Source: Escherichia coli (GTDB lineage Bacteria > Pseudomonadota > Gammaproteobacteria > Enterobacterales > Enterobacteriaceae). Taken from it: a stretch of DNA of 64,000 nt. Position numbers and translations under genes: made by a program. Shown here one piece after another: positions 23,564 through 52,654 of this stretch. The stretch lies in assembly GCF_030384885.1 (NCBI RefSeq), contig NZ_CP128613.1. One strand, written 5' to 3'. The notes beneath the pieces are model-generated. The model worked only from the letters and a program-made list of their open reading frames with translations. It had not been told where the DNA came from and searched no databases. Position 1 is the stretch's first letter. Each line of letters starts with the position of its first letter.

Positions 23564-24256
23564 CTAGTGATAACCACACGCGGTCATAAAATCCGTAATC
23601 GCTTTTTCTGCATCAACCAGCACCTTTTCCAGTGGCTGATTGGCGTCGATATCAACCAGTTGTGCACCACCAAAGGTTAACTGTGGCGTTATGGCAATCT
23701 TTCTCGCCAGCGATTCCCGTTTATGGTCGGGTTTACGCGCGCAGGCAACTTCAAGGTCAACATTGAGTTTGATAACCAGATCAGGCTTATGGCTCGCCAT
23801 CCAGTGAAATGCTTTACGTTCCTGGCTTGCCAGCCATGAGACAAACCGGCCGCCTTCAACGTTAGGTGGGAACACCGTACCATCGTAAGCGCCAGGAATT
23901 TGGTCCTGAGGATAACGATCGGTTAAGACAATCAGCCCGCGACGACGACAGGCGAGCATATGACGAAAGCGTAACAGTCGGCGGGCGACGAAAGCGGTGA
24001 TCACCAGGGCCGGAACCGGACCCGGCAATTTTTTTGCCGTTTTCACTTCATTTTTTTCAATAGTCTTGTGCAGAGACTTTCCCATCAACGGTAATTTTGT
24101 CACTGCACGACCGACATTTCCGGCCTGTTTTCCTAAATGAACTCTTTCGGCAGCACCATATTTTTCGACAACGGTAATAAGATGTTCACACACCGTTGAC
24201 TTGCCTGAACCATCGCTACCAATAACGGCAATTAATGGAGGTGTTATTGACTGCAT
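23564..24256 (-). CDS. yghT: P-loop NTPase (Walker [11 protein letters not shown]), YghR/S/T paralog family
   Basis: Track ORF 230 aa; shares Walker A, DRYPQ and ARKPDH motifs with the two downstream paralogs. Confidence 0.88.
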
Positions 24257-24429
24257 GAATATATCCTTAAATTTAAATATCCATCAAAAATATTTATTTG
24301 GTTAATATGTTTTTATGAAAGCGTAATTCAGGTCAATGTCACAATTAACCATTGTCACAATAAGGTTGAACGGATATTCTGAGCACGGACCACGTAATAT
24401 TCAATACATTATTTTCTGCCGGGTTTTTC

Positions 24430-25143
24430 GTGAATCAACGTAATATGTCAATAATTAATTCCACGCCAGTGCGTGTTATTGCCATTGTAGGATGTGATGG
24501 TTCAGGTAAATCGACCCTCACGGCAAGCCTAGTAAATGAACTGGCAGCAACAATGCCAACAGAACACATTTATCTCGGGCAATCGTCCGGGCGAATTGGC
24601 GAATGGATTTCACAGCTCCCTGTTATTGGCGCACCTTTTGGGCGTTATCTGCGAAGTAAAGCGGCACATGTGCACGAAAAGCCCTCCACACCGCCTGGCA
24701 ATATTACTGCGCTGGTTATTTATCTGCTTTCCTGCTGGCGGGCGTATAAGTTTCGCAAAATGTTGTGTAAAAGCCAGCAAGGCTATCTGCTCATCACCGA
24801 CCGCTACCCGCAGGTTGAAGTGCCGGGTTTTCGCTTTGATGGCCCGCAACTGGCAAAAAACACGGGCGGTAACGGCTGGATAAAAATGTTAAGACAGCGC
24901 GAGCTCAAACTTTACCAATGGATGGCGTCTTATTTGCCCGTATTGTTGATTCGTCTTGGCATTGATGAACAAACCGCGTTTGCGCGTAAACCTGACCACC
25001 AACTGGCGGCGTTACAGGAAAAAATCGCTGTTACGCCGCAACTGACATTCAATGGCGCAAAGATCCTTGAACTGGATGGTCGGCAACCAGCCGATGAAAT
25101 TCTGCAAGCGTCACTACGCGCAATTCACGCCGCGCTTTCCTGA
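24430..25143 (+). CDS. yghS: P-loop NTPase (Walker A VGCDGSGKST), YghR/S/T paralog family
   Basis: Track ORF 237 aa, GTG start. Confidence 0.88.
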   Translation: MNQRNMSIINSTPVRVIAIVGCDGSGKSTLTASLVNELAATMPTEHIYLGQSSGRIGEWISQLPVIGAPFGRYLRSKAAHVHEKPSTPPGNITALVIYLLSCWRAYKFRKMLCKSQQGYLLITDRYPQVEVPGFRFDGPQLAKNTGGNGWIKMLRQRELKLYQWMASYLPVLLIRLGIDEQTAFARKPDHQLAALQEKIAVTPQLTFNGAKILELDGRQPADEILQASLRAIHAALS

Positions 25144-25173
25144 TCACCAAATGGATAGGGGATGATTTAACGA

Positions 25174-25932
25174 ATGGATGCACTACAAACACAAACTGTT
25201 AATAGTACAACCGCGCCGCAGCCCAACTACATTCCGGGGCTGATTGCGGTGGTCGGGTGTGATGGCACCGGTAAATCCACACTGACCACTGACCTGGTGA
25301 AATCGCTGCAACAACACTGGCAAACCGAGCGCCGCTATCTGGGGCTGCTCTCCGGCGAAGACGGCGACAAAATCAAACGGTTGCCGCTCGTTGGCGTCTG
25401 GCTGGAACGGCGACTGGCGGCCAAATCCTCGAAAACCCAAAGCATGAAAACCAAATCTCCGGCGCTATGGGCGGCGGTGATTATGTACTGCTTCTCGCTG
25501 CGAAGAATGGTGAATCTACGCAAGGTTCAGCGACTGGCGCAAAGTGGCGTTCTGGTGGTCAGCGATCGCTTCCCGCAGGCTGAAATTTCGGGCTTTTATT
25601 ATGACGGACCGGGGATTGGCGTCGAGCGTGCGACCGGGAAAATCAGCATGTTTCTGGCACAGCGCGAACGGCGTTTATACCAAAAAATGGCGCAATACCG
25701 TCCTGAATTAATTATTCGTTTGGGGATTGATATTGATACTGCCATCTCCCGCAAGCCTGACCATGACTATGCCGAGCTGCAGGACAAAATCGGTGTCATG
25801 TCGACGATTGGCTATAACGGCACAAAAATTCTTGAGATTGATTCCAGAGCGCCCTACAGCGAAGTGCTGGAACAGGCACAGAAGGCGGTTTCTCTGGTTG
25901 CAATCGTTTCTGACCGCCGAAGTTTAACTTAA
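25174..25932 (+). CDS. yghR: P-loop NTPase (Walker A VGCDGTGKST), YghR/S/T paralog family
   Basis: Track ORF 252 aa MDALQTQTVNSTTAPQPNYIPGLIAVVGCDGTGKST... Confidence 0.88.
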   Translation: MDALQTQTVNSTTAPQPNYIPGLIAVVGCDGTGKSTLTTDLVKSLQQHWQTERRYLGLLSGEDGDKIKRLPLVGVWLERRLAAKSSKTQSMKTKSPALWAAVIMYCFSLRRMVNLRKVQRLAQSGVLVVSDRFPQAEISGFYYDGPGIGVERATGKISMFLAQRERRLYQKMAQYRPELIIRLGIDIDTAISRKPDHDYAELQDKIGVMSTIGYNGTKILEIDSRAPYSEVLEQAQKAVSLVAIVSDRRSLT

Positions 25933-25977
25933 GGTTGGCGGGATACTTTTTACTATCAACGATAAGGTCAGGCTGAA

Positions 25978-27327
25978 TTGGCGGGGTTTAACATCAAACA
26001 TTGGTTTGCAGATGGCGCGTTTCGCACCATTATTCGCAATAGCGCCTGGTTAGGCTCCAGTAATGTCGTGAGCGCTTTGCTGGGTCTGTTGGCGCTCTCG
26101 TGTGCCGGTAAAGGGATGACGCCCGCCATGTTTGGCGTACTGGTGATTGTGCAATCGTACGCCAAGTCGATCAGCGATTTTATTAAGTTTCAGACATGGC
26201 AGCTGGTGGTTCAGTACGGAACGCCAGCCTTGACCAATAATAATCCGCAGCAATTTCGCAATGTCGTCTCATTTTCCTTCTCGTTGGATATCGTCAGCGG
26301 CGCGGTGGCGATTGTCGGCGGCATTGCCTTACTCCCTTTTCTTTCCCATTCATTAGGTCTGGATGACCAAAGCTTTTGGCTGGCAGCGCTGTATTGCACG
26401 CTCATTCCTTCAATGGCTTCCTCCACACCGACCGGCATTCTGCGTGCGGTAGATCGCTTCGATTTGATTGCTGTACAGCAGGCGACGAAACCTTTTCTGC
26501 GCGCAGCGGGGAGCGTCGTAGCCTGGTATTTTGATTTTGGTTTTGCGGGTTTTGTTATTGCCTGGTACGCATCGAATCTGGTTGGCGGCACCATGTACTG
26601 GTGGTTTGCCGCGCGCGAATTACGCCGCAGAAATATCCATAACGCCTTCAAATTGAATCTGTTTGAGTCTGCCCGACACATTAAAGGCGCGTGGAGTTTT
26701 GTCTGGTCAACCAACATTGCCCACTCCATCTGGTCGGCACGTAACTCGTGCAGCACAGTGTTGGTGGGGATCGTGTTAGGACCCGCTGCCGCCGGGTTAT
26801 TTAAAATCGCCATGACATTCTTCGATGCCGCCGGAACGCCAGCGGGTTTACTGGGCAAAAGTTTTTACCCAGAGGTAATGCGTTTAGATCCGCGTACCAC
26901 CAGACCGTGGTTGTTAGGCGTGAAGTCCGGTTTACTGGCGGGCGGAATCGGTATTCTGGTGGCGCTCGCGGTGTTGATCGTCGGCAAGCCGCTCATTTCG
27001 CTGGTGTTTGGCGTTAAGTATCTCGAAGCGTATGACCTGATTCAGGTAATGCTTGGCGCAATTGTGATTTCGATGCTGGGCTTCCCACAGGAGTCATTGC
27101 TATTGATGGCGGGAAAACAGCGCGCTTTTCTCGTGGCGCAAACCATCGCCTCAATCGGCTACATCGTATTGCTGTTCATGTTCTGTCATCTGTTTGGCGT
27201 GCTGGGGGCTGCATTTGCTTACTTCGGTGGGCAATGTCTGGATGTGGTGCTCTCGTTAATTCCAACCTTAAAGGCATTTTTTCAGCGCCATTCCTTGCTT
27301 TATAACGCAGCCGGAGAGAAATCCTGA
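25978..27327 (+). CDS. yghQ: polytopic inner membrane protein, MOP/Wzx-type flippase-like; start codon uncertain (first ATG in frame at 26116)
   Basis: Track ORF 449 aa (non-ATG start at 25978); many hydrophobic helices; stop overlaps next gene start (TGATG). Confidence 0.8.
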   Translation: MAGFNIKHWFADGAFRTIIRNSAWLGSSNVVSALLGLLALSCAGKGMTPAMFGVLVIVQSYAKSISDFIKFQTWQLVVQYGTPALTNNNPQQFRNVVSFSFSLDIVSGAVAIVGGIALLPFLSHSLGLDDQSFWLAALYCTLIPSMASSTPTGILRAVDRFDLIAVQQATKPFLRAAGSVVAWYFDFGFAGFVIAWYASNLVGGTMYWWFAARELRRRNIHNAFKLNLFESARHIKGAWSFVWSTNIAHSIWSARNSCSTVLVGIVLGPAAAGLFKIAMTFFDAAGTPAGLLGKSFYPEVMRLDPRTTRPWLLGVKSGLLAGGIGILVALAVLIVGKPLISLVFGVKYLEAYDLIQVMLGAIVISMLGFPQESLLLMAGKQRAFLVAQTIASIGYIVLLFMFCHLFGVLGAAFAYFGGQCLDVVLSLIPTLKAFFQRHSLLYNAAGEKS

Positions 27328-28151
27328 TGATGAGAAAATATTTCCCGCTTGAGGCGAGCGAGCGTCTATTTATTGCAGTTGAAGAAGATGATGTCGTTGA
27401 TGCGCAGGTCAGTTTACCGCCGACTATCGCAACAGGTTGTACCACCGAAATCATTCATGATAATTACGCGTTATGCCTGCAATTCTGGCTGAATGGCGTT
27501 GATCGTCAGGAATTACTGCGTTTAATCCACAAACAAGCCAAAGGCGAGGGGCTTACGGCTGACGAGCGTAAACAGTTTAAATATATGCGGGCGCGTTATA
27601 AGCATCTGCGTTTCGCTCAGCGACTGTATCTGAAAAAACACAAGGCAGGATTTTTATTCGGCAAAACGACGGTATGTCTGGGCCATTTTCAGGATGGTTT
27701 CCGTAACGGTAAAAAAAATATTGTGTCGTATTACGGCAACCTGTTACGGATTTATTTAAGCTCTCCGGTCTGGTCGTTGGTGAACTATTCATTACGCCAT
27801 AGCCAGTTAGAAAGCGTAAGCGGTTTTATTGCCTATCGGCAAAAGCAAATGCATACCCTGAAAGAGATAATTGCCAAACCGCGACTAACCGGCAGGGAAT
27901 TTCATGATGTGCGAAAAATCATCAGCCAGCAGGTTTCTTATTACGACACCCTAAGATCGCTTGATCCTGAAAAAAAAGAAGCGTTACAGATTTCCCGCTT
28001 CCTCGCCGCCATTAATGGCCTGATGGGGGATAAACACGACGACATGGTGGCGGATGATATGGAAAACCGCCAGTCGTATGATGCACCGATGGCGCTGGAT
28101 AGCGATATTCGTCAGCGCTTAGAACTGCTGATTTCGCGTTTTCCGCTATAA
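27327..28151 (+). CDS. hypothetical soluble protein, no recognisable motif
   Basis: Track ORF 274 aa MMRKYFPLEASERLFIAVEEDD...; start overlaps yghQ stop; codon usage protein-like. Confidence 0.6.
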   Translation: MMRKYFPLEASERLFIAVEEDDVVDAQVSLPPTIATGCTTEIIHDNYALCLQFWLNGVDRQELLRLIHKQAKGEGLTADERKQFKYMRARYKHLRFAQRLYLKKHKAGFLFGKTTVCLGHFQDGFRNGKKNIVSYYGNLLRIYLSSPVWSLVNYSLRHSQLESVSGFIAYRQKQMHTLKEIIAKPRLTGREFHDVRKIISQQVSYYDTLRSLDPEKKEALQISRFLAAINGLMGDKHDDMVADDMENRQSYDAPMALDSDIRQRLELLISRFPL

Positions 28152-28159
28152 CCGGAGCA

Positions 28160-28723
28160 ATGATGTCATCTCGTTTGATTATTGCGCTGATTATCATGCT
28201 CTTAGCCCCGGGTGTGCAGGCACACAATTTCGTCACGGGTAAAACGGTTACCCCTGTTTATATCCAGGAAGGCGGCGAGCTGCTTCTGAATAGCGACGAC
28301 GAAATTCACTACCAAAAGTGGAACAGCACACAGCTGGCGGGAAAAGTCCGCATTATTCAGTATATCGCCGGGCGTAAGTCGGCGAAGAAAAAGAACTCAC
28401 TGTTAATTAAAGCGGTTGAAGCGGCAAACTTTCCGCAGGATCGTTTTCAGCCCACCACCATTGTGAACACCGATGATGCCATCTTTGGTACTGGCTATTT
28501 TGTCGTTGGCAAAATCGAAAAAAATAAACGCCGCTATCCGTGGGCGCAATTCGTTATTGACGGCAATGGACAGGGACGCGTTGCCTGGCGGTTGCCGGAG
28601 CAGAGTTCAACCATTCTGGTGCTGAATAAAGCCGGGCAAATTCAGTGGGCAAAGGACGGCAGCCTGACGCCGGAAGAGGTAGATCATGTCATTGCGCTGG
28701 CGCAGAAGCTGATCAATGAATAA
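28160..28723 (+). CDS. YtfJ-family periplasmic protein (paralog of core ytfJ), signal peptide MMSSRLIIALIIMLLAPGVQA
   Basis: Track ORF 187 aa; collinear similarity to remembered E. coli YtfJ (shared stretches VVQYIAGR.., TTIVNTDDAI, YPW.QFV.D, WAKDG.LTPEEV). Confidence 0.75.
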   Translation: MMSSRLIIALIIMLLAPGVQAHNFVTGKTVTPVYIQEGGELLLNSDDEIHYQKWNSTQLAGKVRIIQYIAGRKSAKKKNSLLIKAVEAANFPQDRFQPTTIVNTDDAIFGTGYFVVGKIEKNKRRYPWAQFVIDGNGQGRVAWRLPEQSSTILVLNKAGQIQWAKDGSLTPEEVDHVIALAQKLINE

Positions 28724-28752
28724 AAATTCAAAGGATTGAGGGCGTTAGTGAG

Positions 28753-29823
28753 ATGAAGCTGGTTGAACACTACATCATGCGTGGTACTCGCCGTCTGGTG
28801 CTGATTATCGTCGGTTTTCTGATCTTTATTTTCGCCAGCTACTCCGCACAGCGTTATCTGACCGAAGCGGCAAATGGGACATTAGCTCTTGATGTTGTGC
28901 TGGATATTGTTTTCTACAAGGTGCTGATTGCACTGGAGATGTTGTTACCTGTTGGACTGTATGTGTCAGTTGGCGTGACGCTAGGGCAGATGTATACCGA
29001 CTCGGAAATTACCGCTATTTCTGCGGCGGGGGGGAGTCCGGGACGCTTGTACAAAGCCGTTCTTTATCTGGCGATACCGCTAAGTATTTTTGTCACCCTT
29101 CTGTCGATGTATGGTCGTCCGTGGGCTTATGCGCAGATTTATCAACTGGAGCAACAGTCGCAGTCGGAGCTGGATGTTCGCCAGTTGCGGGCAAAGAAAT
29201 TTAACACTAACGATAACGGACGAATGATCCTTTCGCAGACGGTTGATCAGGATAATAATCGCCTGACTGACGTGCTGATTTATACTTCTACTGCCAATCG
29301 AACCCGTATTTTCCGCGCCCGTTCGGTTGATGTAGTTGACCCATCACCCGAGAAACCGACCGTTATGTTGCATAACGGGACCGCCTATCTTCTCGATCAT
29401 CAGGGACGTGACGACAACGAACAGATCTACCGTAATCTGCAATTGCATCTGAATCCGCTGGATCAAAGCCCTAACGTCAAACGCAAAGCAAAATCGGTCA
29501 CGGAGCTGGCGCGCTCCGCCTTTCCTGCCGATCATGCCGAACTGCAATGGCGACAAAGCCGTGGCCTGACAGCATTGTTGATGGCGCTGCTGGCCATTTC
29601 ATTAAGTCGGGTAAAACCGCGGCAAGGGCGATTTTCAACGTTATTGCCACTGACGTTGCTGTTTGTTGCCATTTTTTATGGCGGCGACGTCTGCCGTACG
29701 CTGGTGGCTAACGGCGCGATTCCCCTCATTCCTGGTTTGTGGTTAGTACCCGGACTCATGCTAATGGGCCTGCTGATGCTGGTCGCACGCGACTTCTCTT
29801 TGCTGCAGAAATTTTCCCGATGA
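28753..29823 (+). CDS. LptF-like permease (YjgP/YjgQ family), paralog of core lptF
   Basis: Track ORF 356 aa; N-terminal TM bundle, conserved YTDSEITAISAAG segment resembling LptF LYTESEITVMHACG, large periplasmic insert, C-terminal TMs. Confidence 0.8.
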   Translation: MKLVEHYIMRGTRRLVLIIVGFLIFIFASYSAQRYLTEAANGTLALDVVLDIVFYKVLIALEMLLPVGLYVSVGVTLGQMYTDSEITAISAAGGSPGRLYKAVLYLAIPLSIFVTLLSMYGRPWAYAQIYQLEQQSQSELDVRQLRAKKFNTNDNGRMILSQTVDQDNNRLTDVLIYTSTANRTRIFRARSVDVVDPSPEKPTVMLHNGTAYLLDHQGRDDNEQIYRNLQLHLNPLDQSPNVKRKAKSVTELARSAFPADHAELQWRQSRGLTALLMALLAISLSRVKPRQGRFSTLLPLTLLFVAIFYGGDVCRTLVANGAIPLIPGLWLVPGLMLMGLLMLVARDFSLLQKFSR

Positions 29824-30899
29824 ATGTTTTCAGTCGCTATTTAATCCGTCATCTCTTTCTCGGTTTTGCCGCCGCCGCAGGGCTATTGCTGCCGCTTTTT
29901 ACTACCTTCAACCTGATTAACGAACTGGATGATGTCAGCCCGGGTGGTTATCGCTGGACTCAGGCGGTGCTGGTGGTGCTGATGACCTTACCGCGCACAC
30001 TGGTCGAACTTTCGCCGTTTATCGCCTTATTGGGGGGGATTGTCGGCTTGGGGCAGTTATCGAAAAACAGTGAGCTTACCGCCATTCGCAGCACGGGGTT
30101 TTCTATCTTCCGTATTGCACTGGTGGCGCTGGTTGCCGGGATATTGTGGACTGTTTCATTAGGCGCGATAGATGAGTGGGTGGCGTCGCCATTGCAGCAA
30201 CAGGCGCTGCAAATCAAATCGACTGCCACTGCGTTGGGGGAGGACGATGACATTACCGGCAATATGCTGTGGGCCAGGCGTGGTAATGAATTTGTGACGG
30301 TGAAATCGCTGAACGAGCAGGGCCAGCCGGTGGGCGTGGAGATATTTCATTACCGCGACGATCTCTCGCTCGAATCCTACATTTATGCACGCAGTGCCAC
30401 CATTGAAGACGACAAAACGTGGATCCTGCATGGTGTGAATCATAAAAAATGGCTGAATGGCAAAGAAACGCTGGAAACATCTGATAATCTTGCCTGGCAA
30501 TCGGCCTTCACCAGTATGAATCTTGAAGAGTTATCGATGCCGGGAAATACTTTTTCTGTCCGTCAACTTAATCATTACATCCATTATTTGCAGGAAACCG
30601 GGCAACCCAGCAGCGAATACCGCCTTGCACTGTGGGAAAAACTGGGACAACCCATCTTGACCCTGGCGATGATTTTGCTGGCTGTGCCGTTTACCTTTAG
30701 TGCCCCGCGTTCGCCTGGGATGGGTAGCCGTCTCGCTGTAGGCGTCATCGTGGGCTTACTCACCTGGATCAGCTATCAAATCATGGTCAATCTGGGATTG
30801 CTATTTGCGTTGAGCGCACCTGTTACCGCGCTCGGTTTACCGATAGCGTTTATGCTGGTGGCGTTGAGCCTGGTGTATTGGTATGACAGTCAACATTAA
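29820..30899 (+). CDS. LptG-like permease (YjgP/YjgQ family), paralog of core lptG
   Basis: Track ORF 29739..30899; start trimmed to MNVFSRYLIRHLFLGF (359 aa), ATGA overlap with upstream permease; segment NSELTAIRSTGFS resembles LptG. Confidence 0.8.
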   Translation: MNVFSRYLIRHLFLGFAAAAGLLLPLFTTFNLINELDDVSPGGYRWTQAVLVVLMTLPRTLVELSPFIALLGGIVGLGQLSKNSELTAIRSTGFSIFRIALVALVAGILWTVSLGAIDEWVASPLQQQALQIKSTATALGEDDDITGNMLWARRGNEFVTVKSLNEQGQPVGVEIFHYRDDLSLESYIYARSATIEDDKTWILHGVNHKKWLNGKETLETSDNLAWQSAFTSMNLEELSMPGNTFSVRQLNHYIHYLQETGQPSSEYRLALWEKLGQPILTLAMILLAVPFTFSAPRSPGMGSRLAVGVIVGLLTWISYQIMVNLGLLFALSAPVTALGLPIAFMLVALSLVYWYDSQH

Positions 30900-30933
30900 A
30901 CCCGCCGTGGCGCAGCACCACAGCGGGCTCACA

Positions 30934-32106
30934 TTACTGCTTCAGAGTAGCAAATGCCTGAATGATGGCATCGATTTGCTCACGAGTGTGGGCAGCGTTT
31001 ACGCTACAGCGCAGCAGCGTGATGCCTGCAGGCGCGGCAGGTGGCAGGATAAGATTCACATAAACGCCCAGCGAAATAAGCTCGCGCCAGATGCGTAAAC
31101 CTTCCTCTTTCGAACCGATTATCACTGGCACTACCGGGCTAATATGTGAACTTAACTCGTAACCCAGTTTTTGCAGACCGTCATACAGATGGTTGGCGTT
31201 ATCCATCAGCTTTTGCCGCAACTCTGGTTGTGAGGCAATGGTTCTTAACGACGAGCGCACGGTCGCAATGCAGGACGGAGAAGGAGAGGCGGTAAAAATA
31301 TACGGGCGGCTGCCGTAGCGCAGCACTTCCATCGCTTCCGAACCGACAGCAAAACCGCCAATCGAGGCCAGACTTTTACTGAAAGTACCAACGATAATAT
31401 CCACATCATCTTCAACGCCAACGGCTTCAGCCAGTCCGCGCCCCGTTGCGCCTAACACGCCAAACGAATGCGCTTCATCGACAATCAAATAACCACCGAG
31501 ACGACGTTTGATATCAACAATTTCCGCCAGCGGCGCAATGTCACCGAGCATACTGTAGATGCCTTCAACGATGATAATCGCCTCTTTTGCCCGTTCACCG
31601 AGGCGAACCATGCGCCGTTCCAGATCTTTAGCATCGTTATGGCGGAAACGAATAATTTCCGCTCCACCGAGAGAACAGGCGTCATAAATACTGGCGTGGC
31701 TGTCGGCATCCAGTAACACTACGGCGTTATGGTCGGCAAGTGCGCTGATGACACCTAAATTAGCGGTATAACCGGTTGAAAAAACGATAGCGGTAGGGCG
31801 ATTGAAAAACTCGGCAATTTCTTTCTCTAACGCCAGATGTGGCGCATAGCTGCCATTAGCCATACGAGAACCGGTAGTGCCGGTGCCTTGGGCCGCTAAC
31901 GCTGCCTGACCTTCGGCGATGGCATCATGATTGAAGGTTAAACCGAGATAATTATTGGTCCCGGCCAGGATCACGTTTTTATCGCCGATCCGGCCTTCGG
32001 TGGCGGAATACACTTCATCAATACAGGTACCAAACGGCGTTAACCCGTTGTCACTAAATTGCAGTCGCTCGCCAGCAAGGCGCGCATATTTATCGTATAG
32101 CCCCAT
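30934..32106 (-). CDS. PLP-dependent alpha-oxoamine synthase, serine palmitoyltransferase-like (third AOS paralog besides bioF and kbl)
   Basis: Track ORF 390 aa; PLP-lysine motif IVGTFSKSLASIGG, DEAHSFG motif, glycine-rich GTGTTGSR segment; TAATG overlap with upstream ACP. Confidence 0.85.
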   Translation of the reverse strand: MGLYDKYARLAGERLQFSDNGLTPFGTCIDEVYSATEGRIGDKNVILAGTNNYLGLTFNHDAIAEGQAALAAQGTGTTGSRMANGSYAPHLALEKEIAEFFNRPTAIVFSTGYTANLGVISALADHNAVVLLDADSHASIYDACSLGGAEIIRFRHNDAKDLERRMVRLGERAKEAIIIVEGIYSMLGDIAPLAEIVDIKRRLGGYLIVDEAHSFGVLGATGRGLAEAVGVEDDVDIIVGTFSKSLASIGGFAVGSEAMEVLRYGSRPYIFTASPSPSCIATVRSSLRTIASQPELRQKLMDNANHLYDGLQKLGYELSSHISPVVPVIIGSKEEGLRIWRELISLGVYVNLILPPAAPAGITLLRCSVNAAHTREQIDAIIQAFATLKQ

Positions 32107-32354
32107 TATTTATTCTCCAGCCATGGAAGTAGAGTTTCCATTAATTGCGCAGGGGTTTTGACATCCAGCAGAATATTAATAGGAATGGAAATATCGAATC
32201 TGTCTTCCAGCATCATTAAGAGATCCATCACTTTGATCGACTCCAGGCCAAGATCGTTGACGAGATCGCTGTCGGGCTTAATTTCCACACCGTTTTCGAC
32301 CAAATCCTGTAAACAGGAAAGGATGTAATCCATTACTATTTCACGATTTACCAT
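32106..32354 (-). CDS. acyl carrier protein (dedicated), candidate phosphopantetheine site in DLGLESIKVMDL
   Basis: Track ORF 82 aa; acidic four-helix ACP-like sequence; position between reductase and AOS. Confidence 0.7.
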   Translation of the reverse strand: MVNREIVMDYILSCLQDLVENGVEIKPDSDLVNDLGLESIKVMDLLMMLEDRFDISIPINILLDVKTPAQLMETLLPWLENK

Positions 32355-32385
32355 AGAAACGTTAACACACCTTTAAACAAGACAA

Positions 32386-33300
32386 TCAAAATAGCCCGTT
32401 GCGTAATGCGTGTTCCAGGCTAATCCCGGGAAACCAATTAATATCTTCAGAAATACGGTTATTACTTGCTGACCAGTCGGTGTGGGTTAATTCACGGATT
32501 TTCGAGCGGGTCAGCATAGGTTCTTTACCTGCCAGGCGACTCAACGCGGTACTGATATCCGCAAGGCAGGTGAGTACCGACAGAGGAATACCAACCATTC
32601 GAACGGAACCGCAACGGGCGTCGGCGGCAAGTTGCTGTACGCGTTGCCAGTCATAGCCGCCGGCGACGCCATCGCATAATTCATAGGTTTGCGTCTGTAC
32701 AGTTTCGGCGCTTAACCACTGCCCCACGGCTTGCGCGAAATCGGTGACGTGCAGGAAAGAGAGCTGTGTATCTGGCGCACCAAGTCGTGGCAGCAGGCCG
32801 CGCAGCATCCAGTCAAACAGCGGTTTTAACTCTTTATCGCCGGGACCATACACGGCTGTCGGGCGAAAAATGCCCAGCGTAATTTCGTCAGCCATTGCGG
32901 TCAGTCGTTGTTCGGCGACGTGTTTGGAATTTGCGTACCAGGAGAGTTCGGGATGGCGCGCCGCCAGCGAAGAGATAAACAGAAAACGTTGGCAAAAGCC
33001 GCTCTCTTTTGCCGCTTGCATCAGGCGCAGGCTGCCGTCAACGTTACAGCGGGTAAAAATCTCTTCTTTGTGTCCGCGCACTTGCCCGGCGCAATGGACC
33101 ACCGCGCTGGCTCCGGCAACCAGTTCGCTAAGCGAATGTGTATCTTCCAGCGAACCGCGCACCCAGATGAGATTATCATTGACGTGAGCGCGGGCAGTAC
33201 GCGTCAATGCGCGAACGTGAAAGCCGCGGGCGAGCAGGTTATCGATAATATATTTACCGATAAACCCGGTAGCGCCCGTCACCGCGACAGTTTGATTCAT
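32386..33300 (-). CDS. NAD(P)-dependent reductase of the epimerase/dehydratase SDR type (candidate 3-keto-sphinganine/ceramide reductase)
   Basis: Track ORF 304 aa; N-terminal VAVTGATGFIGKY Rossmann motif, YANSK (YxxxK); ATGA overlap with upstream FAAL. Confidence 0.8.
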   Translation of the reverse strand: MNQTVAVTGATGFIGKYIIDNLLARGFHVRALTRTARAHVNDNLIWVRGSLEDTHSLSELVAGASAVVHCAGQVRGHKEEIFTRCNVDGSLRLMQAAKESGFCQRFLFISSLAARHPELSWYANSKHVAEQRLTAMADEITLGIFRPTAVYGPGDKELKPLFDWMLRGLLPRLGAPDTQLSFLHVTDFAQAVGQWLSAETVQTQTYELCDGVAGGYDWQRVQQLAADARCGSVRMVGIPLSVLTCLADISTALSRLAGKEPMLTRSKIRELTHTDWSASNNRISEDINWFPGISLEHALRNGLF

Positions 33301-35015
33301 GCCATTGATTCCTGCACATGAAGGCTTGCAGCATAACGTTTTTTCGCTTCCGCACGGGCAGGCTTGCCGGAGGACGTTCGGGGAATACTGTGGGGCGGCA
33401 ACAGATCGATAGCCGCTGTTACGCCAAATTCGCTTTGGATCCGTGCTGCCAGTGCGTGGATAAGCTGCCCACGACGTTCTTCGTCGCTGATCCTACACTG
33501 GATCTGCAAAATGATTTTTTCCTGGGCGGTAACAAAAGCAATCGCATCGCCAGAATGAATTTCCGGTTCCTGTTCCGCAATATATTCAATATCCTGCGGC
33601 CAGATATTACGGCCACGAATAATAATCAGATCTTTAATGCGCCCGGTGACATACAGATAACCGTCCAGCAGATAACCGAGGTCGCCGGTATCTAACCAGC
33701 CCGTCGCGGCAATCTCGTCTTGCGAAACCTGGTCGCCAAAGTAACCGCTCATCAGGCTGGGGCCGGAGATGCAAATATGGCCTACCACACGTTCCGCGAC
33801 TGGCATACCTGCTTCATTGCGGATTTCAATGCCATGTTCCGGCAACGCTTTACCGCAGTTGACGAAAGTCGATACGGCGCGTGTTTCAGCACCCGGCGTG
33901 ACGGCTTTGCCCTGATATTCAAGAATGTCGCGATCCACTTCGTTAACCACAACCCCGGAGGCTTCATCAGAGAAGCTGACAGCCAGCGCATTTTCTGCCA
34001 GTCCGTAGCACGGCATGAAAGTTTTATCGTCAAAGTTAACCTGACGGAAACATTCAGCGAATTGATGGAGTTGTTCTGCGGAGATCGGCTCAGCACCAAT
34101 ACCAGCAACGCGCCAGCAGGAAAGATCCAGTTCAGCGAGATCTTTTTCATTCACGCGGCGCTGGCACAATTCATAGCCAAACGGCGGCGCAACGGAAACG
34201 GTGCCGCGATTTTTACTGATCAATTTAAGCCATTGCAGAGGACGCATGGCAAAATCCTGAGTGCGCAAATAATCTACTGAGAGCTGCGTGGCGACGGGGG
34301 TCAGGAGAAAGCCGACCAGTCCCATATCATGGTAGAAAGGCAGCCAGGAGACGCAGCGGTCGCCAGGGCGTAATTTAATGCCATCGTGGCTTATAGCACG
34401 TAGATTAGCCATCACTTCGCGATGGGTGATAATGACGCCACGGGGAAAACGGGTGCTGCCGGAGGTGTACTGGAGGTAGGCGATATCGTTCGGAACTGGA
34501 CGCTGGAGTACAACATCGGCTTCCGGTAATGCCTTAAACCAGGCGTGGCTTAAAACATGTAATTCGGGGTTGTTATGCGTAGCAGCATTGACCAGTGGCA
34601 ACCACTCATCACCAGTGATAATGGCTGCGGGCTGGCAACTTGCCAGTAGACCCTGCAGTTTGGCGCTCCAGGAATCCCGCTGACCGACGCCCATTGGAAT
34701 TGCCAACGGGACGGCGACTAAGCCGGCATACTGGCAGGCAAAAAAAGCCTCTACAAACCCGCTACTCGTTTCGGCAATCAGCGCCACGCGATCGCCTTTT
34801 TTCAGATTCAGTGATAACAACCGCTTCGCACCAGCTTCGGCACGCGCTTTTAACGTCTGATATTCCAGTTGATCTTCAAGTTGGCAACGTCTGTCATAAA
34901 AATTCATTCCGGCGCTACTCAGAGCGGCGTAGTCCAAAGCATCAACCAGCGTTGGAAAATCGGCATAGCGCATAGGTAGGGAATGCGTAAAGATGTTATT
35001 AGACATATACACCAC
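33297..35015 (-). CDS. fatty acyl-AMP ligase / acyl-ACP synthetase (adenylate-forming); start at GTG 35015 or ATG ~35006
   Basis: Track ORF 572 aa; AMP-binding signature YTSGSTRFPRGV, second motif TGDLGY; first gene of the minus-strand operon. Confidence 0.85.
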   Translation of the reverse strand: MVYMSNNIFTHSLPMRYADFPTLVDALDYAALSSAGMNFYDRRCQLEDQLEYQTLKARAEAGAKRLLSLNLKKGDRVALIAETSSGFVEAFFACQYAGLVAVPLAIPMGVGQRDSWSAKLQGLLASCQPAAIITGDEWLPLVNAATHNNPELHVLSHAWFKALPEADVVLQRPVPNDIAYLQYTSGSTRFPRGVIITHREVMANLRAISHDGIKLRPGDRCVSWLPFYHDMGLVGFLLTPVATQLSVDYLRTQDFAMRPLQWLKLISKNRGTVSVAPPFGYELCQRRVNEKDLAELDLSCWRVAGIGAEPISAEQLHQFAECFRQVNFDDKTFMPCYGLAENALAVSFSDEASGVVVNEVDRDILEYQGKAVTPGAETRAVSTFVNCGKALPEHGIEIRNEAGMPVAERVVGHICISGPSLMSGYFGDQVSQDEIAATGWLDTGDLGYLLDGYLYVTGRIKDLIIIRGRNIWPQDIEYIAEQEPEIHSGDAIAFVTAQEKIILQIQCRISDEERRGQLIHALAARIQSEFGVTAAIDLLPPHSIPRTSSGKPARAEAKKRYAASLHVQESMA

Positions 35016-35377
35016 GAAAAAAATTGGATATCAGAAATAAAATGACAATAATGCGGTGGATTATATAGGCATAAAAGATAAATGAGATAGTATTTTCATC
35101 GGTGCGATATTGAACATTGATTTAAATAATAGGTTTGGCTTTGTTGTTTTTATTGTGAATGATATTTAATTTATGAATATATTAAGAAGAAGCCTTGTTT
35201 GGTTGCCTTAAATCGACAAAAGGCATTGAGGCGCTTCTGTGTAGTCTCTGACCTTATCTTAATTATTAATAAATACTATTTATTCTTTGTTTGTATTCAT
35301 TGGGTTGATTATTAAGATGCCGTTCGTTGCTGTTGCAATCTGTTTGTCACCGTTAATTATTTGTTATCCACAGAGAT
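35016..35377. promoter_or_regulatory. AT-rich divergent promoter region between the FAAL operon (-) and yghO (+)
   Basis: ~360 bp strongly AT-rich with A/T tracts; flanked by divergent start codons; typical of H-NS-bound, horizontally acquired regulatory regions. Confidence 0.5.
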
Positions 35378-36520
35378 ATGGAATGCGATCTGCTGATGAT
35401 TAAAATTGAAAAAGTAATTAATAAAAATGACATTAAGGCATTTATCGCTTTTCCGTCATCACTTTATCCCGATGATCCAAACTGGATACCCCCTTTGTTC
35501 ATTGAACGCAGCGAGCATTTGTCGGCGAAGAATCCGGGGACGGACCATATTATCTGGCAGGCGTGGGTAGCAAAAAAAGCGGGGCAGATAGTCGGGCGGA
35601 TTACCGCGCAAATCGATACCTTGCACCGCGAGCGTTACGGTGACGATACCGGTCATTTTGGCATGATTGACGCCATTGATGATCCGCAGGTTTTTGCCGC
35701 TTTGTTTGGCGCAGCGGAAGCATGGTTGAAGTTACAAGGTGCCAGTATGATCAGCGGGCCTTTCAGCCTGAATATCAATCAGGAAAGCGGATTACTGATT
35801 GAAGGTTTCGACACTCCGCCCTGTGCGATGATGCCGCACGGTAAACCGTGGTATGCCGCGCATATTGAACAATTGGGTTATCACAAAGGTATTGATTTAC
35901 TGGCGTGGTGGATGCAACGAACCGATCTCACTTTCTCTCCGGCGCTAAAAAAACTGATGGATCAGGTACGCAAAAAGGTGACCATTCGTTGCATCAATCG
36001 TCAGCGGTTTGCTGAAGAGATGCAGATCCTGCGTGAGATTTTCAACTCTGGCTGGCAGCACAACTGGGGATTTGTGCCGTTTACCGAACATGAATTCGCT
36101 ACCATGGGCGATCAACTAAAGTATCTGGTACCGGACGATATGATCTACGTCGCTGAGATTGGTTCTGCACCCTGCGCGTTTATTGTCGGCTTGCCGAACA
36201 TCAACGAGGCGATTGCCGATCTGAACGGATCGCTCTTTCCCTTCGGCTGGGCAAAATTGCTGTGGCGCTTAAAAGTCAGCGGTGTGCGAACTGCGCGAGT
36301 GCCGCTGATGGGCGTGCGTGACGAGTATCAGTTCAGCCGCATCGGCCCGGTGATTGCGCTGTTATTGATTGAAGCCTTACGCGATCCGTTTGCTCGCCGG
36401 AAGATCGATGCGCTGGAAATGTCATGGATCCTCGAAACCAATACAGGCATGAATAACATGCTGGAACGCATTGGAGCGGAGCCGTACAAGCGTTACCGAT
36501 TGTATGAAAAGCAGATTTAA
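35378..36520 (+). CDS. yghO: YghO, full-length; candidate N-acyltransferase (GNAT/FemAB-like fold suspected, not verified)
   Basis: Track ORF 380 aa MECDLLMIKIEKVINKNDIKAF...; position between the lipid operon and glcC. Confidence 0.75.
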   Translation: MECDLLMIKIEKVINKNDIKAFIAFPSSLYPDDPNWIPPLFIERSEHLSAKNPGTDHIIWQAWVAKKAGQIVGRITAQIDTLHRERYGDDTGHFGMIDAIDDPQVFAALFGAAEAWLKLQGASMISGPFSLNINQESGLLIEGFDTPPCAMMPHGKPWYAAHIEQLGYHKGIDLLAWWMQRTDLTFSPALKKLMDQVRKKVTIRCINRQRFAEEMQILREIFNSGWQHNWGFVPFTEHEFATMGDQLKYLVPDDMIYVAEIGSAPCAFIVGLPNINEAIADLNGSLFPFGWAKLLWRLKVSGVRTARVPLMGVRDEYQFSRIGPVIALLLIEALRDPFARRKIDALEMSWILETNTGMNNMLERIGAEPYKRYRLYEKQI

Positions 36521-36658
36521 TACCAGATCCCATTAAGCGCACGGACGGTCATTCGGGAGAGTGTATAGATGAACAGATTTAACATCAGATCCTATTAAGC
36601 GCAGGGGCGGTCCCCTCGCCCCTCAGGGAGAGGGTTAGGGTGAGGGGGAAAACTCGGC

Positions 36659-37429
36659 TCACATTCCCCCCTTGTTCATCTCCAGTGGCACCGCCGAGCG
36701 AATCAAATGGTGGCCTTCCAGTTCGATATCGTGGAGATTCTTTTTCACGGTCCGCACATGATCACGTGCGGCGCGCTGGGCGACGTGCGGCAGTCGCTGC
36801 AACACCGCGTTGTAGATCCGCGCATGTTGGCGATCGATCTGCTTTTTTTGCTGTGGTCGATGGTAGAGATTATTTACGCTGGCAAACACTGAATTAAACA
36901 TCAGATCGGTCAATGATTGCAGCGTAAAAACTAGCACCTGATTGTGGGAAGCCTGACAAATGGCAAGATGGAAAGCATGATCCAGCTGCGCGTGTTCGAT
37001 CAGCGAAATTTCTTTGTTGTTTTCACTGGCGGCGAGCATTTTTTCATAACAGCGGGTTATCAAAACAAAATCCGCCTGGGTTCCCAGCGTAGCTGCCAAC
37101 CTTGCCGATTCGCCTTCCAGCAATGCGCGAACGTCGAGTAGATCGTATAGCGTTCGCGGCTGTGTACTGAACAGATGGATCAGCGGGCTGGTGTCCTGCA
37201 CGCGATTAAGGCGTGCGACACGAGAATCGCGCCCCTGTGCTGTTTCAATAATCCCGCGTCCGCGCAGCACGGTCAGCCCTTCACGCAGTGCGGAACGCGA
37301 GAAGCCGAGCTTTTCACACAGTCGACGCTCCGAAGGAAGCGGCTGACCGACCTTCAGCACGCCGTCGATAATTAACCGTTCGATACTCTCTGCAACCACT
37401 TCGCAAATAGGGCGACGTTCATCTTTCAT
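36659..37429 (-). CDS. glcC: GntR-family activator of the glycolate operon
   Basis: Track ORF 36659..37489; start trimmed to MKDERRPICEVVAESIERLIIDG. Confidence 0.93.
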   Translation of the reverse strand: MKDERRPICEVVAESIERLIIDGVLKVGQPLPSERRLCEKLGFSRSALREGLTVLRGRGIIETAQGRDSRVARLNRVQDTSPLIHLFSTQPRTLYDLLDVRALLEGESARLAATLGTQADFVLITRCYEKMLAASENNKEISLIEHAQLDHAFHLAICQASHNQVLVFTLQSLTDLMFNSVFASVNNLYHRPQQKKQIDRQHARIYNAVLQRLPHVAQRAARDHVRTVKKNLHDIELEGHHLIRSAVPLEMNKGGM

Positions 37430-46140: not shown

Positions 46141-46599
46141 CTTCATTCTTTGTTCATTACATTATTCTGTCTTATTAATTTAAAATCATTTCCTGCTTTA
46201 TTATCTATACAGTAATAATGTATTGCATTCAGATAACATACTAAATAATTAAGGGTGTGAGAATATCTGTTTTTTTATCACGCAAAACAAGTCTGTATTA
46301 ATTATGTTCGCTTGATGAGCAAACACCGTTCTATCTGTTGCTTTTGCAATCTAAATCGTTAAAACTATCAACGAATTTATATGGTTACGCTGTGAAAAGT
46401 TGTTGATTTTTTGTTTGTTGAAATTTCGTAAAAATAACCTGGCAGATATCGTATAGGGGATATTCTTATAGATTTCACCTGTTTTTCTATAAATGATGCC
46501 GTTTTCTTAAGAATGGAGGAAGTTATTAGAGAAAATAAAGCATAAAACTATTTTCCCAGTTACAAATTCTTTAATTTTATTTTGTCACTTGCGTTATTA

Positions 46600-47592
46600 A
46601 TGAATAAGAAATTTAAATATAAAAAATCGCTTTTAGCGGCTATTTTAAGCGCAACCTTATTAACCGGTTGTGATGGCGGTGGTTCAGGATCGTCCTCCGA
46701 TACGCCGTCTGTAGATTCTGGAGCAGGGACTTTGCCGGAAGTGAAACCCGATCCAATACCAACCCCGGAACCGACACCTGAGCCGACGCCGGACCCAGAA
46801 CCTACACCAGACCCGACACCCGATCCAGAGCCGACACCAGAACCGGAGCCAGAACCTGTTCCTACGAAAACGGGGTATCTGACCCTGGGCGGAAGCCAGC
46901 GGGTAACTGGTGCTACCTGTAATGGTGAATCCAGCGACGGCTTTACCTTTACGCCAGGCAATACCGTGAGTTGTGTGGTGGGCAGTACGACCATTGCAAC
47001 ATTCAACACCCAGTCAGAGACTGCGCGTAGCCTGCGTGCGGTTGACAAAGTGTCGTTTAGCCTTGAGGACGCGCAGGAGCTGGCGGATTCTGCAAATAAG
47101 AAAACCAACGCCATCTCTCTGGTGACGTCCAGCGACAGTTGCCCCGCAGATGCAGAACAGCTTTGTCTTACTTTCTCGTCAGTGGTTGATCGCGCGCGTT
47201 TTGAAAAACTGTATAAGCAAATTGATCTGGCAACAAACGATTTCAGCAAGCTGGTCAATGAAGAGGTGGAAAACAATGCTGCGACTGATAAAGCGCCGTC
47301 CACCCATACCTCAACGGTAGTGCCAGTCACGACAGAGGGAACAAAACCGGATCTGAACGCGTCCTTCGTGTCGGCTAACGCGGAACAGTTTTATCAGTAT
47401 CAACCAACTGAAATCATTCTTTCCGAAGGCCATCTGGTGGATAGCCTGGGGAACGGTGTTGCTGGCGTAGACTACTACACCAATTCAGGCCGTGGCGTAA
47501 CTGACGAAAACGGTAAATTCTCCTTTAGCTGGGGCGAAACCATCTCCTTTGGTATCGATACCTTTGAACTGGGCTCAGTACGCGGCAATAAG
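46600..47592 (+). pseudogene. yghJ: sslE/yghJ lipoprotein mucinase, 5' fragment only (~330 of ~1500 codons), then out-of-context tail to stop at 47664
   Basis: Track ORF 46582..47664; MNKKFKYKKSLLAAILSATLLTGCDGGG lipobox, PEPT-repeat linker, collinear with SslE N-terminus up to ...ISFGIDTFELGSVRGNK, after which similarity stops. Confidence 0.8.
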
Positions 47593-47603
47593 ATCCGCAG
47601 AAA

Positions 47604-47861
47604 ATTTTTAACTATATCCAGCTTACGCCTGTGCGTAAGGAGGGAATTGTCGGTTATGCAGTGAAGCCGGGGGCAGATCGTTCTCTGTTCGATGCCAGCG
47701 GTTTCAGGGAAGGCGATATCGCCATTGCGCTCAATCAGCAGGATTTCACTGATCCACGAGCAATGATTGCTCTGATGCGGCAGTTACCTTCAATGGATTC
47801 CATTCAACTTACGGTTTTACGCAAGGGTGCGCGCTACGACATTTCCATCGCGCTGCGCTAA
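47604..47861 (+). pseudogene. gspC: gspC (T2SS-beta) 3' fragment encoding only the C-terminal PDZ-like region
   Basis: Frame continuing into track ORF 47631..47861 reads ...NYIQLTPVRKEGIVGYAVKPGADRSLFDASGFREGDIAIALNQQDFTDPRAMIALMRQLPSMDSIQLTVLRKGARYDISIALR; no 5' part present. Confidence 0.7.
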
Positions 47862-47890
47862 CCGCATTTAATCCAGGAGAATCATTCATC

Positions 47891-48807
47891 GTGTTTTGGC
47901 GTGATATTACGTTGTCGGCCTGGCGTAAGAAGACAACTGGCCTCAAAACAAAAAAGCGTTTACTGCCGCTGGTGCTGGCAGCGGCATTATGCAGTTCACC
48001 GGTCTGGGCGGAAGAAGCCACTTTCACCGCTAATTTTAAAGATACCGACCTGAAATCGTTCATCGAAACCGTCGGCGCTAACCTTAATAAAACCATCATT
48101 ATGGGGCCGGGCGTACAGGGGAAAGTGAGTATTCGTACCATGACCCCACTCAATGAACGCCAGTATTACCAGCTATTCCTTAACCTGCTGGAAGCACAGG
48201 GGTATGCCGTCGTACCGATGGAAAACGACGTGCTGAAGGTGGTGAAATCCAGCGCCGCGAAAGTCGAGCCGCTGCCGCTGGTCGGTGAAGGCAGCGACAA
48301 CTACGCGGGCGATGAAATGGTCACCAAAGTAGTGCCGGTACGTAATGTGTCGGTCCGCGAACTGGCACCGATTTTGCGCCAGATGATCGACAGCGCAGGC
48401 TCAGGCAACGTTGTTAATTACGATCCCTCCAACGTAATTATGCTCACCGGACGCGCCTCCGTCGTAGAGCGCCTGGCGGTCTGATGGACGATCAGGCGGG
48501 AGAAAGCGTGGCGAAAGTGCCGCTGCTGGGCGATATCCCGTTGATTGGTAACCTGTTTAAATCGACGGCGGATAAAAAAGAAAAACGTAACCTGATGGTG
48601 TTTATCCGCCCGACCATTCTGCGTGATGGTATGGCGGCAGACGGCGTGTCGCAGCGCAAATATAACTATATGCGCGCCGAACAGATCTATCGCGATGAGC
48701 AAGGCTTAAGCCTGATGCCGCACACCGCGCAGCCGATATTGCCTGCGCAAAATCAGGCTCTACCGCCGGAAGTTCGTGCGTTCCTTAATGCCGGGAGAAC
48801 GCGTTAA
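47891..48807 (+). pseudogene. gspD: gspD secretin with large internal deletion/frameshift (N0-domain fragment 47891..48484 plus C-terminal fragment 48484..48807)
   Basis: Track ORFs of 197 aa (signal peptide + N0 domain, ends ...VNYDPSNVIMLTGRASVVERLAV) and 107 aa (secretin C-terminal motif VPLLGDIPLIGNLF) in different frames; intact GspD is ~650 aa. Confidence 0.8.
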
Positions 48808-50300: not shown

Positions 50301-50995
50301 TGGCACTGTTTTACTATCAGGCGTTACAGCGTAATGGTCGCAAAACCAAAGGCATGATTGAGGCGGATTCCGCGCGTCATGCCCGCCAGTTGTTGCGCGG
50401 TAAAGAGCTTATCCCCGTACACATTGAAGCCCGGATGAATGCTTCGTCAGGGGGAATGTTGCAGCGTCGGCGACACGCACATCGTCGTGTGGCGGCGGCA
50501 GATCTGGCGCTGTTCACTCGCCAACTGGCAACGCTGGTGCAGGCAGCAATGCCGCTGGAAACCTGCTTACAGGCGGTCAGTGAGCAAAGTGAAAAACTGC
50601 ATGTAAAAAGCCTCGGAATGGCGCTACGCAGCCGGATTCAGGAAGGTTACACCCTGTCGGACAGCCTGCGCGAACATCCCCGCGTCTTTGACTCCCTGTT
50701 TTGTTCGATGGTGGCTGCCGGAGAAAAATCCGGGCATCTCGACGTGGTGCTCAATCGCCTGGCGGATTACACCGAACAGCGACAGCGCCTGAAATCACGC
50801 CTGCTGCAGGCCATGCTCTATCCGCTGGTACTGCTGGTGGTGGCAACGGGCGTGGTCACTATTTTGCTGACGGCGGTGGTGCCGAAAATTATCGAACAGT
50901 TTGATCATCTCGGACACGCGCTGCCTGCCTCCACCCGCGCTCTTATCGCTATGAGCGACGCGTTGCAGACCAGCGGCGTTTACTGGCTGACCGGT
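50300..50995 (+). pseudogene. gspF: gspF inner-membrane platform protein, 3'-truncated (~230 of ~400 codons); ORF continues into unrelated sequence to 51088
   Basis: Track ORF 50300..51088 262 aa; GspF-like N-terminal cytoplasmic domain and first TM; last ~30 residues non-GspF. Confidence 0.75.
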
Positions 50996-51239
50996 GCCAT
51001 GTATCACGGGCCTGTGCATCCATTAAGGAAAGCATCCCTGAACGTTGCATCAGGTCACGCCAGATTTCGCGATCGAGATTGCGTGTGATGGCTTTCATTG
51101 CGGTTTCCGGTTTCTCCATCAGCCAGCAGCCGCAGCGAAAATCCTGTTTCATGGCCCAGTCCGGGGCGGCTTTACCGCCAATACTTTCTGTCATTGCTGA
51201 TATTTCAGCCAGTTGCCGGATAAGTGTGTCGTGTAGTGG

Positions 51240-52539
<1,300 letters not shown>

Positions 52540-52644: not shown

Positions 52645-52654
52645 ATATGAATTT

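Follow-up and report, generated by a model that had tools for sequence, protein, structure and literature searches.

The stretch of DNA analyzed here (the window) comprises 64,000 nucleotides from Escherichia coli (contig NZ_CP128613.1 of RefSeq assembly GCF_030384885.1), and its positions 30934-35015 very probably hold the operon aasR-cerR-acpR-spt, which belongs to the sphingolipid locus of E. coli and corresponds to CC_1165-CC_1162 in Caulobacter. An earlier reading of the same DNA, made from the sequence alone, had proposed a ceramide-type lipid pathway for these four genes. This interpretation is supported by the family assignment of the encoded serine palmitoyltransferase (SPT; gene product Spt), by the close likeness of the genes to a locus of strain BL21(DE3) whose enzymes have been studied biochemically, and by the parallel with the ceramide genes of Caulobacter.

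The membrane lipids of E. coli are usually described as phosphatidylethanolamine, phosphatidylglycerol, and cardiolipin only. Given this picture, it is notable that E. coli outside K-12 holds a complete toolkit for ceramide synthesis that is maintained by selection. The locus itself is already known in RefSeq and in the literature, and since this includes the genes, their names, and the first biochemical step, the finding alone adds no new knowledge. The remaining value lies in the conditions under which the operon is expressed, in the final lipid and its head group, and in the roles of the neighboring yghR, yghS, yghT, CHAD-like, and ytfJ-like genes.

Layout of the operon

The listing of open reading frames (ORFs) places four co-directional ORFs on the minus strand, which together span 30934-35015:

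aasR, 33297..35015, minus strand: acyl-acyl carrier protein (ACP) synthetase of the fatty acyl-AMP ligase (FAAL) type that loads AcpR (572 aa if GTG 35015 is the start)
cerR (also epi), 32386..33300, minus strand: putative 3-keto reductase of the extended short-chain dehydrogenase/reductase (SDR) family, 304 aa, whose predicted substrate is a long-chain base or an oxidized ceramide
acpR, 32106..32354, minus strand: dedicated ACP of 82 aa with its 4'-phosphopantetheine site at Ser39
spt, 30934..32106, minus strand: serine palmitoyltransferase dependent on pyridoxal phosphate (PLP), 390 aa

The tight coupling described in the sequence-only reading is borne out by both the ORF listing and the junctions as read from the sequence. 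At the aasR/cerR junction (GGCATGAATC) the stop codon TGA of AasR overlaps the ATG of CerR (ATGA), and at the acpR/spt junction (AATAAATAATGGGG) the stop codon TAA of the carrier protein shares one base with the ATG of Spt (TAATG); cerR and acpR are separated by a gap of 31 nt. The ligase had been given a length of 572 aa, which is correct for the ORF beginning at GTG 35015, whereas the RefSeq annotation pipeline PGAP starts the gene at ATG 35006 and thus arrives at 569 aa. In RefSeq the four genes are named fatty acyl-AMP ligase, NAD-dependent epimerase/dehydratase family protein, acyl carrier protein, and spt (serine palmitoyltransferase), respectively. They are real genes and not chance ORFs, as shown by their strong family matches, their orthologues in 80 Spt loci that were collected in a scan of one genome per species, and ratios of nonsynonymous to synonymous substitution (dN/dS) of 0.03-0.16 within E. 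coli.

Family assignment of Spt

The strongest case can be made for Spt. It scores 599.9 bits against the NCBIfam equivalog model for Spt (NF047599), whose cut-off lies at 500, and stays below the cut-offs of the following alpha-oxoamine synthase (AOS) models: 334.8 bits against 426.45 for BioF (TIGR00858), 298.8 against 460 and 250.1 against 493 for Kbl (NF005394 and TIGR01822, respectively), 224.1 against 428 for CqsA (NF005526), and 219.6 against 338.55 for 5-aminolevulinate synthase (TIGR01821). The best matches in the PDB point in the same direction, as the SPTs of Sphingomonas paucimobilis (2jg2, 378 bits) and S. wittichii (2x8u, 371 bits) come well before Kbl (205 bits) and BioF (177 bits). 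The motif GTFSKS is found at residue 240, which makes Lys244 the lysine that forms the Schiff base with PLP. When aligned to 2jg2, the residues H137, D210, H213, K244, and R366 of Spt coincide with H159, D231, H234, K265, and R390 of the S. paucimobilis enzyme, such that the E. coli protein retains the lysine that binds PLP as well as the active-site His, Asp, His, and Arg of the Sphingomonas SPTs (S. paucimobilis and S. wittichii; 2jg2 and 2x8u). We take the roles of these aligned residues to be those described in the structural literature on SPT.

The sequence-only reading had already treated this AOS as an extra one beside BioF and Kbl, and had named beforehand a grouping with either of the two as an outcome that would overturn its proposal. 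In a neighbor-joining tree, Spt falls instead within the clade formed by the Caulobacter and Nitrosomonas Spt enzymes, which leaves the proposal unrefuted; since this tree carries no bootstrap values, it is used solely together with the cut-offs of the profile models. The opposing view, in which the AOS duplicates BioF or Kbl as a paralogue that takes part in biotin or threonine metabolism, next to unrelated genes, might draw on the common AOS family and on some database entries that label Spt as 8-amino-7-oxononanoate synthase. It is refuted by the tests made, and we see practically no room left for it. Although E. coli BioF and Kbl share the AOS fold and the PLP chemistry with Spt, they form a separate clade and occupy a different genomic context, their models are missed by about 90 and 160 bits, and the K-12 enzymes are only 30.5% (BioF) and 31.6% (Kbl) identical to Spt. 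Moreover, spt is translationally coupled to the gene of a dedicated ACP.

Two unusual relatives were encountered along the way. A 443-aa protein of the 'eukprot' set (P0047) is 97% identical to Spt and combines a PP-binding with an aminotransferase Pfam domain; this is probably a gene model in which acpR and spt were merged, derived from E. coli DNA contaminating a eukaryotic data set. In another protein (P0126, 794 aa), an Spt-like C-terminal half (53% identical) follows an N-terminal extension of about 400 residues.

AasR, CerR, and AcpR

The remaining three products were also assigned as the sequence-only reading had suggested, and the motifs that it quoted for the ligase, the reductase, and the AOS are all present. 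AasR is a FAAL-type ligase according to NCBIfam model NF006624 (873 bits, cut-off 600), with the motif YTSGSTRFPRGV at residue 180 (numbering of the PGAP-length protein). CerR matches the Pfam Epimerase family (PF01370, 5e-23) and is an extended SDR with a Rossmann fold of the epimerase/dehydratase type, in which GATGFIGKY at residue 9 and YANSK at residue 122 provide the GxxGxxG and YxxxK signatures. AcpR matches ACP families, its Ser39 is invariant in 16 orthologues, and acpR immediately precedes spt in the large majority of the 80 loci.

Comparison with BL21(DE3) and Caulobacter

A fifth gene of the proposed pathway starts divergently from aasR:

yghO (aca, bcerS), 35378..36520, plus strand: putative acyl-CoA N-acyltransferase (bacterial ceramide synthase, bCerS)
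aasR-yghO intergenic region, 35007..35377, no strand: AT-rich, presumed promoter or regulatory region of both genes

Profile scans with YghO gave no Pfam or NCBIfam match. Its function is therefore taken from orthology and from its predicted fold: the AlphaFold2 model (mean confidence pLDDT 90.9) is a tandem-GNAT fold, for which Foldseek finds 2wpw with an E value of 8e-16. The 80 loci were also searched by tblastn with 14 proteins of the window, and the resulting matrix indicates that yghO stays near the operon in most loci that hold it.

BL21(DE3) has this chromosomal locus as well, at 2989282-3002257 (ECD_02850-ECD_02854), again between glcC and pitB and in the same gene order. AcpR is 100% identical in both (WP_000248097.1), while Spt (98.2%, ECD_02854), AasR (97.4%, ECD_02851), CerR (96.7%), and YghO (98.2%) differ by strain-level substitutions only. 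The BL21(DE3) genes were named by Padilla-Gómez et al. in 2022 as aasR (ECD_02851), epi (ECD_02852), acpR (ECD_02853), spt (ECD_02854), and aca (yghO/ECD_02850) (PMC9386255). In that work, AcpREc was shown to take up 4'-phosphopantetheine derived from beta-alanine, and AasREc acylated its own AcpR but not the AcpR from Caulobacter, functioning together with AcpREc and SPTEc (PMC9386255). SPTEc preferred acyl-AcpR over acyl-CoA or acyl-AcpP, and the BL21(DE3) orthologues delivered 3-oxo-sphinganine from L-serine and acyl-AcpR, a product identified by its migration in thin-layer chromatography (TLC) (PMC9386255). When SPTEc, AcpR, and AasR were produced together in E. coli, spots migrating like sphinganine and ceramide appeared (PMC9386255). 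The statement in the sequence-only reading that the function of the locus had not been established in E. coli hence needs correction, as PGAP already contains spt and three of the BL21(DE3) gene products (ECD_02851, ECD_02853, and ECD_02854) were characterized in 2022 (PMC9386255). Under the names yghO and yghQRST, no functional study of the locus was found in the literature searched (open-access PMC and bioRxiv).

The genes of the ceramide cluster in Caulobacter have been defined genetically and biochemically (PMC9386255, PMC11324152, PMC11087976). All five genes of such a cluster are present in the window (Spt, acpR 5' of spt, AasR, CerR, and bCerS), and the parallel drawn in the sequence-only reading is confirmed by five homologues of 35-54% identity in the same gene order. 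In particular, the proteins of the Caulobacter vibrioides locus are identical to those of E. coli at 54% (Spt), 46% (AasR, E 7e-151), 43% (AcpR), 33-35% (CerR, E 2e-40), and 43% of positions (YghO/bCerS, E 8e-92), with the order aasR-cerR-acpR-spt corresponding to CC_1165-CC_1162 (cerR being CC_1164) and cerS/bcerS to CC_1154. In Caulobacter the YghO homologue is located 9 kb from spt, whereas in E. coli yghO lies right beside aasR and is transcribed away from it. LptF/LptG paralogues and a MOP-type flippase-like gene are linked in Caulobacter as well. In contrast, the Caulobacter genes between spt and lptF2 (the cpgA/B/C region; ORFs at 11.2-16.7 kb of locus L049) gave no tblastn match (E <= 1e-4) in the 64-kb window, and no homologue of Caulobacter lptC2 was found there. 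In place of the cpg-region genes, E. coli and other Enterobacterales carry yghR/S/T, a CHAD-like protein, and a periplasmic YtfJ-like protein. A different arrangement again is known from the Sphingomonadaceae, where aasR is located elsewhere in the genome (PMC9386255).

Neighboring genes of the locus

The whole sphingolipid locus in the window consists of 13 genes (23564-36520), and the region of the four-gene operon within it is placed between pitB-yghT and glcC. In addition to the five genes described above, it contains the following:

yghT, 23564..24256, minus strand: P-loop kinase-like paralogue, divergent from yghS
yghS, 24430..25143, plus strand: P-loop kinase-like paralogue
yghR, 25174..25932, plus strand: P-loop kinase-like protein with Walker A motif GCDGTGKST
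yghQ, 25978..27327, plus strand: MOP-family flippase-like membrane protein of 449 aa, full length (truncated in K-12)
CHAD-like gene, 27327..28151, plus strand: all-alpha protein of 274 aa with a CHAD-like fold
ytfJ-like gene, 28160..28723, plus strand: YtfJ-family protein with an N-terminal signal peptide, periplasmic
lptF2, 28753..29823, plus strand: intact LptF paralogue, candidate subunit of a sphingolipid extractor
lptG2, 29820..30899, plus strand: LptG paralogue, partner of LptF2

The lptF2/lptG2 pair is adjacent and convergent to spt, and it is linked to spt in many of the 80 loci. Because LptF2 (TIGR04407, 323 bits) and LptG2 (TIGR04408, 308 bits) both exceed the equivalog cut-offs of LptF and LptG, PGAP names the genes lptF and lptG. 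With respect to the LptB2FG extractor of lipopolysaccharide, they constitute a second copy that is embedded in the sphingolipid locus. The Caulobacter LptF2/G2 proteins are genetically tied to sphingolipid production and bind LptB, according to a 2026 preprint that also draws the sphingolipid operons of E. coli UTI89 beside those of Caulobacter and S. wittichii (10.64898/2026.04.12.717747). The lptF2 ORF in the window measures 1071 nt and encodes 356 aa, with a protein identical to that of strain R32_14_1F. A frameshift in lptF of the best-matching record (NZ_CP027579.1, 4369605-4370674, 1070 nt) was considered and is not valid for the window, given the intact ORF. The window thus differs from NZ_CP027579.1 by at least one base in lptF, which reflects either a real variant or an assembly error.

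YghQ gives a weak match to the MOP flippase model NF007773 and is 27% identical to the protein encoded upstream of aasR in the Caulobacter locus. The latter, CC_1166, has been called a potential flippase (PMC11324152). The 274-aa protein has no significant match in Pfam or NCBIfam and, as for YghO, its description relies on orthology and the predicted fold. The YtfJ-like protein (TIGR01626, 212 bits; N-terminus MMSSRLIIALIIMLLAPGVQA) is co-inherited with spt in Enterobacterales.

YghR, YghS, and YghT are three paralogues sharing the Walker A motif G(S/C)DG(S/T)GKST. Together with spt they are inherited in Enterobacterales and in three further loci, namely of Luteibacter, of a betaproteobacterial metagenome-assembled genome, and of a Pseudomonas metagenome-assembled genome. 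Two of the three are labeled 'dTMP kinase' by PGAP/RefSeq. This label was not adopted because the scores amount to about 25 bits against cut-offs of 83-193: YghS reaches 24.7 bits with TIGR00041 (cut-off 83), YghT 25.7 bits with the dTMP-kinase models (cut-offs 83 and 193), and YghR shows weak dTMP-kinase and AAA matches. Sequence searches of the PDB returned nothing below E = 0.01 for YghS and YghT, all matches of YghT lying at E >= 0.1. Judged by these scores, the name looks like an over-annotation. As a speculation, YghR/S/T and the YtfJ-like protein could take part in head-group chemistry or in handling the lipid.

Proposed pathway and its product

The proposed route starts with AasR, which would adenylate a free long-chain fatty acid and pass it on to AcpR, where the 4'-phosphopantetheine arm at Ser39 would receive it. 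Next, Spt (Lys244, PLP) would condense acyl-AcpR with L-serine under loss of CO2 to yield 3-oxo-sphinganine. By homology only, YghO as a tandem-GNAT bCerS is then expected to attach the second acyl chain (N-acylation) and CerR to reduce the 3-keto group, delivering dihydroceramide. The order of these two steps is disputed for Caulobacter, where acylation first with a periplasmic CerR (PMC11087976) stands against the eukaryote-like order of the Geiger group (PMC9386255). Finally, the convergent neighboring operon probably serves to flip the lipid (YghQ) and to extract it toward the outer membrane (LptF2/LptG2 together with LptB), and it may also add a head group. While the first two steps have been shown by others on near-identical proteins, those of CerR and YghO, as well as export, head group, and native expression, are suggested by homology only.

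The four-gene operon by itself would end at a reduced or oxidized long-chain base, and the sequence-only reading had allowed for such a product. Together with the membership of CqsA in the AOS family, this raises the alternative of a soluble or signaling amino-ketone or a free sphingoid base (i.e., a CqsA-like autoinducer or a long-chain-base signal) in place of a membrane ceramide. We consider it improbable. Not only does Spt reach just over half of the CqsA cut-off while surpassing that of the Spt model, but a bCerS-type tandem-GNAT gene also adjoins the operon divergently and is kept close in most loci that hold it, and LptF/LptG paralogues and a flippase-like gene lie next to the operon on the other side. 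The ceramide-like spot obtained alongside the sphinganine-like one in E. coli with SPTEc, AcpR, and AasR speaks against a signal product as well (PMC9386255).

Distribution, loss in K-12, and selection

The 4082-base region is matched in 4163 of 5426 complete E. coli genomes (77%), in 4067 of which at least 80% of its length is covered. The closest complete genome is not a B strain but strain 2013C-4282 (a human stool isolate), with 100% identity. In K-12 MG1655 (NC_000913.3, 3129043-3132408; approximately window 27327-35377), an IS5 element (IS5LO/insH9) lies between yghO and a truncated yghQ, and eight genes are missing: the 274-aa gene, the ytfJ-like gene, lptF2, lptG2, spt, acpR, cerR, and aasR. 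From this arrangement, the loss looks IS5-associated. Because K-12 lacks these genes, the pathway does not appear in the standard gene lists of E. coli.

Outside E. coli, the order aasR-cerR-acpR-spt is kept in most of the 80 loci, including that of Caulobacter vibrioides. The set of 13 genes occurs together in Pseudocitrobacter, Hafnia, Pluralibacter, Mangrovibacter, and Rosenbergiella. The same 13 genes are found in Serratia marcescens (L090/L091, 1-13632), where aasR-cerR-acpR-spt is placed upstream of, and co-directional with, the operon running from yghS to lptG2 (inverted with respect to E. coli). Conservation of the gene set across Enterobacterales, including the rearranged Serratia locus, argues for selection on a joint function. 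The 13 genes are followed, in one of the S. marcescens strains, by a phospholipase-like gene and by two genes with ankyrin repeats.

The dN/dS ratios were calculated for the window against BL21(DE3), a divergent E. coli, and Pseudocitrobacter, with the glc genes as neighbors for comparison. For all 13 genes they amount to 0.02-0.16 within E. coli and to at most 0.23 versus Pseudocitrobacter, and the glc genes give similar values. The locus is under purifying selection.

Counterarguments and native expression

Several points weigh against the assignment of the region to a working sphingolipid pathway. In Spt, the position of Arg378 of the S. paucimobilis enzyme (RPPATP loop) is taken by Leu354 (LPPAAP). 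A leucine is also found here in the consensus of ten related Spt sequences, and SPTEc is active nonetheless; the position is not conserved in this group of Spt enzymes, which may be linked to the use of acyl-ACP. In CerR, the Rossmann motif occupies residues 9-17, so close to the N-terminus that a classical signal peptide would not fit in front of it, in contrast to the reported periplasmic location of the Caulobacter enzyme (PMC11087976). E. coli CerR is either cytoplasmic or exported non-classically. Furthermore, the roles of ECD_02852 as the reductase and of ECD_02850 as the N-acyltransferase were only proposed ('might encode'), and BL21(DE3) with an empty vector, which has the locus on its chromosome, gave no 3-oxo-sphinganine spot in TLC (PMC9386255). 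Lastly, a native E. coli sphingolipid was not reported in the literature searched.

In view of the negative result with the empty vector, cells grown in rich laboratory medium may not express the operon. Taken further, the locus might be intact but cryptic, being transcriptionally silent (e.g., through nucleoid-protein silencing) such that no lipid is formed in ordinary growth and the capacity is latent or used in a niche only. This we regard as rather unlikely, even if the missing BL21(DE3) spot and the lack of reported native sphingolipids are in its favor. The base composition also fits: the aasR-yghO intergenic region has a GC fraction of 0.302 compared with 0.515 for the whole window, the second divergent intergenic region (24257-24429, between yghT and yghS) likewise has about 30% GC, and the coding parts of the locus are normal (0.50-0.52). 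Such low GC could be compatible with silencing of the presumed promoters by nucleoid proteins in laboratory culture. A scan of 30700-36700 for consensus promoters and terminators performed no better than on shuffled sequence, for which reason no promoter is claimed. K-12, moreover, has lost its eight genes without an obvious laboratory phenotype. On the other hand, all 13 genes show dN/dS values as low as those of the glc genes, and the locus persists in about three-quarters of the complete genomes and in many genera of Enterobacterales despite rearrangement, which argues for selection for function somewhere in the life cycle. Silence would concern expression, and the biochemical assignment is not contradicted by it.

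Returning to a sphingolipid pathway that is put to use, we tentatively suggest a wider picture, which is possible rather than probable. Most natural E. coli (about three-quarters of the complete genomes) would, under some condition, make an outer-membrane sphingolipid with a head group unlike the phosphoglycerate of Caulobacter. This head group might be built or handled by a module of YghR/S/T, the CHAD-like protein (possibly polyphosphate-binding), and the periplasmic YtfJ-like protein, which is found mainly in Enterobacterales, and the lipid would be exported by LptB-LptF2/LptG2. In K-12, the IS5-associated deletion would have removed the pathway and thereby kept the lipid out of sight through decades of lipid research on E. 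coli.

Further genes in the window

Downstream of the glc operon (about 46400-64000, plus strand), the window carries sslE, which encodes a lipoprotein mucinase, and the gspC-M cluster of a type II secretion system (T2SS-beta). The hyb operon for hydrogenase-2 is located upstream of yghU. Like sslE and gspC-M, it belongs to the ordinary annotated context of E. coli.

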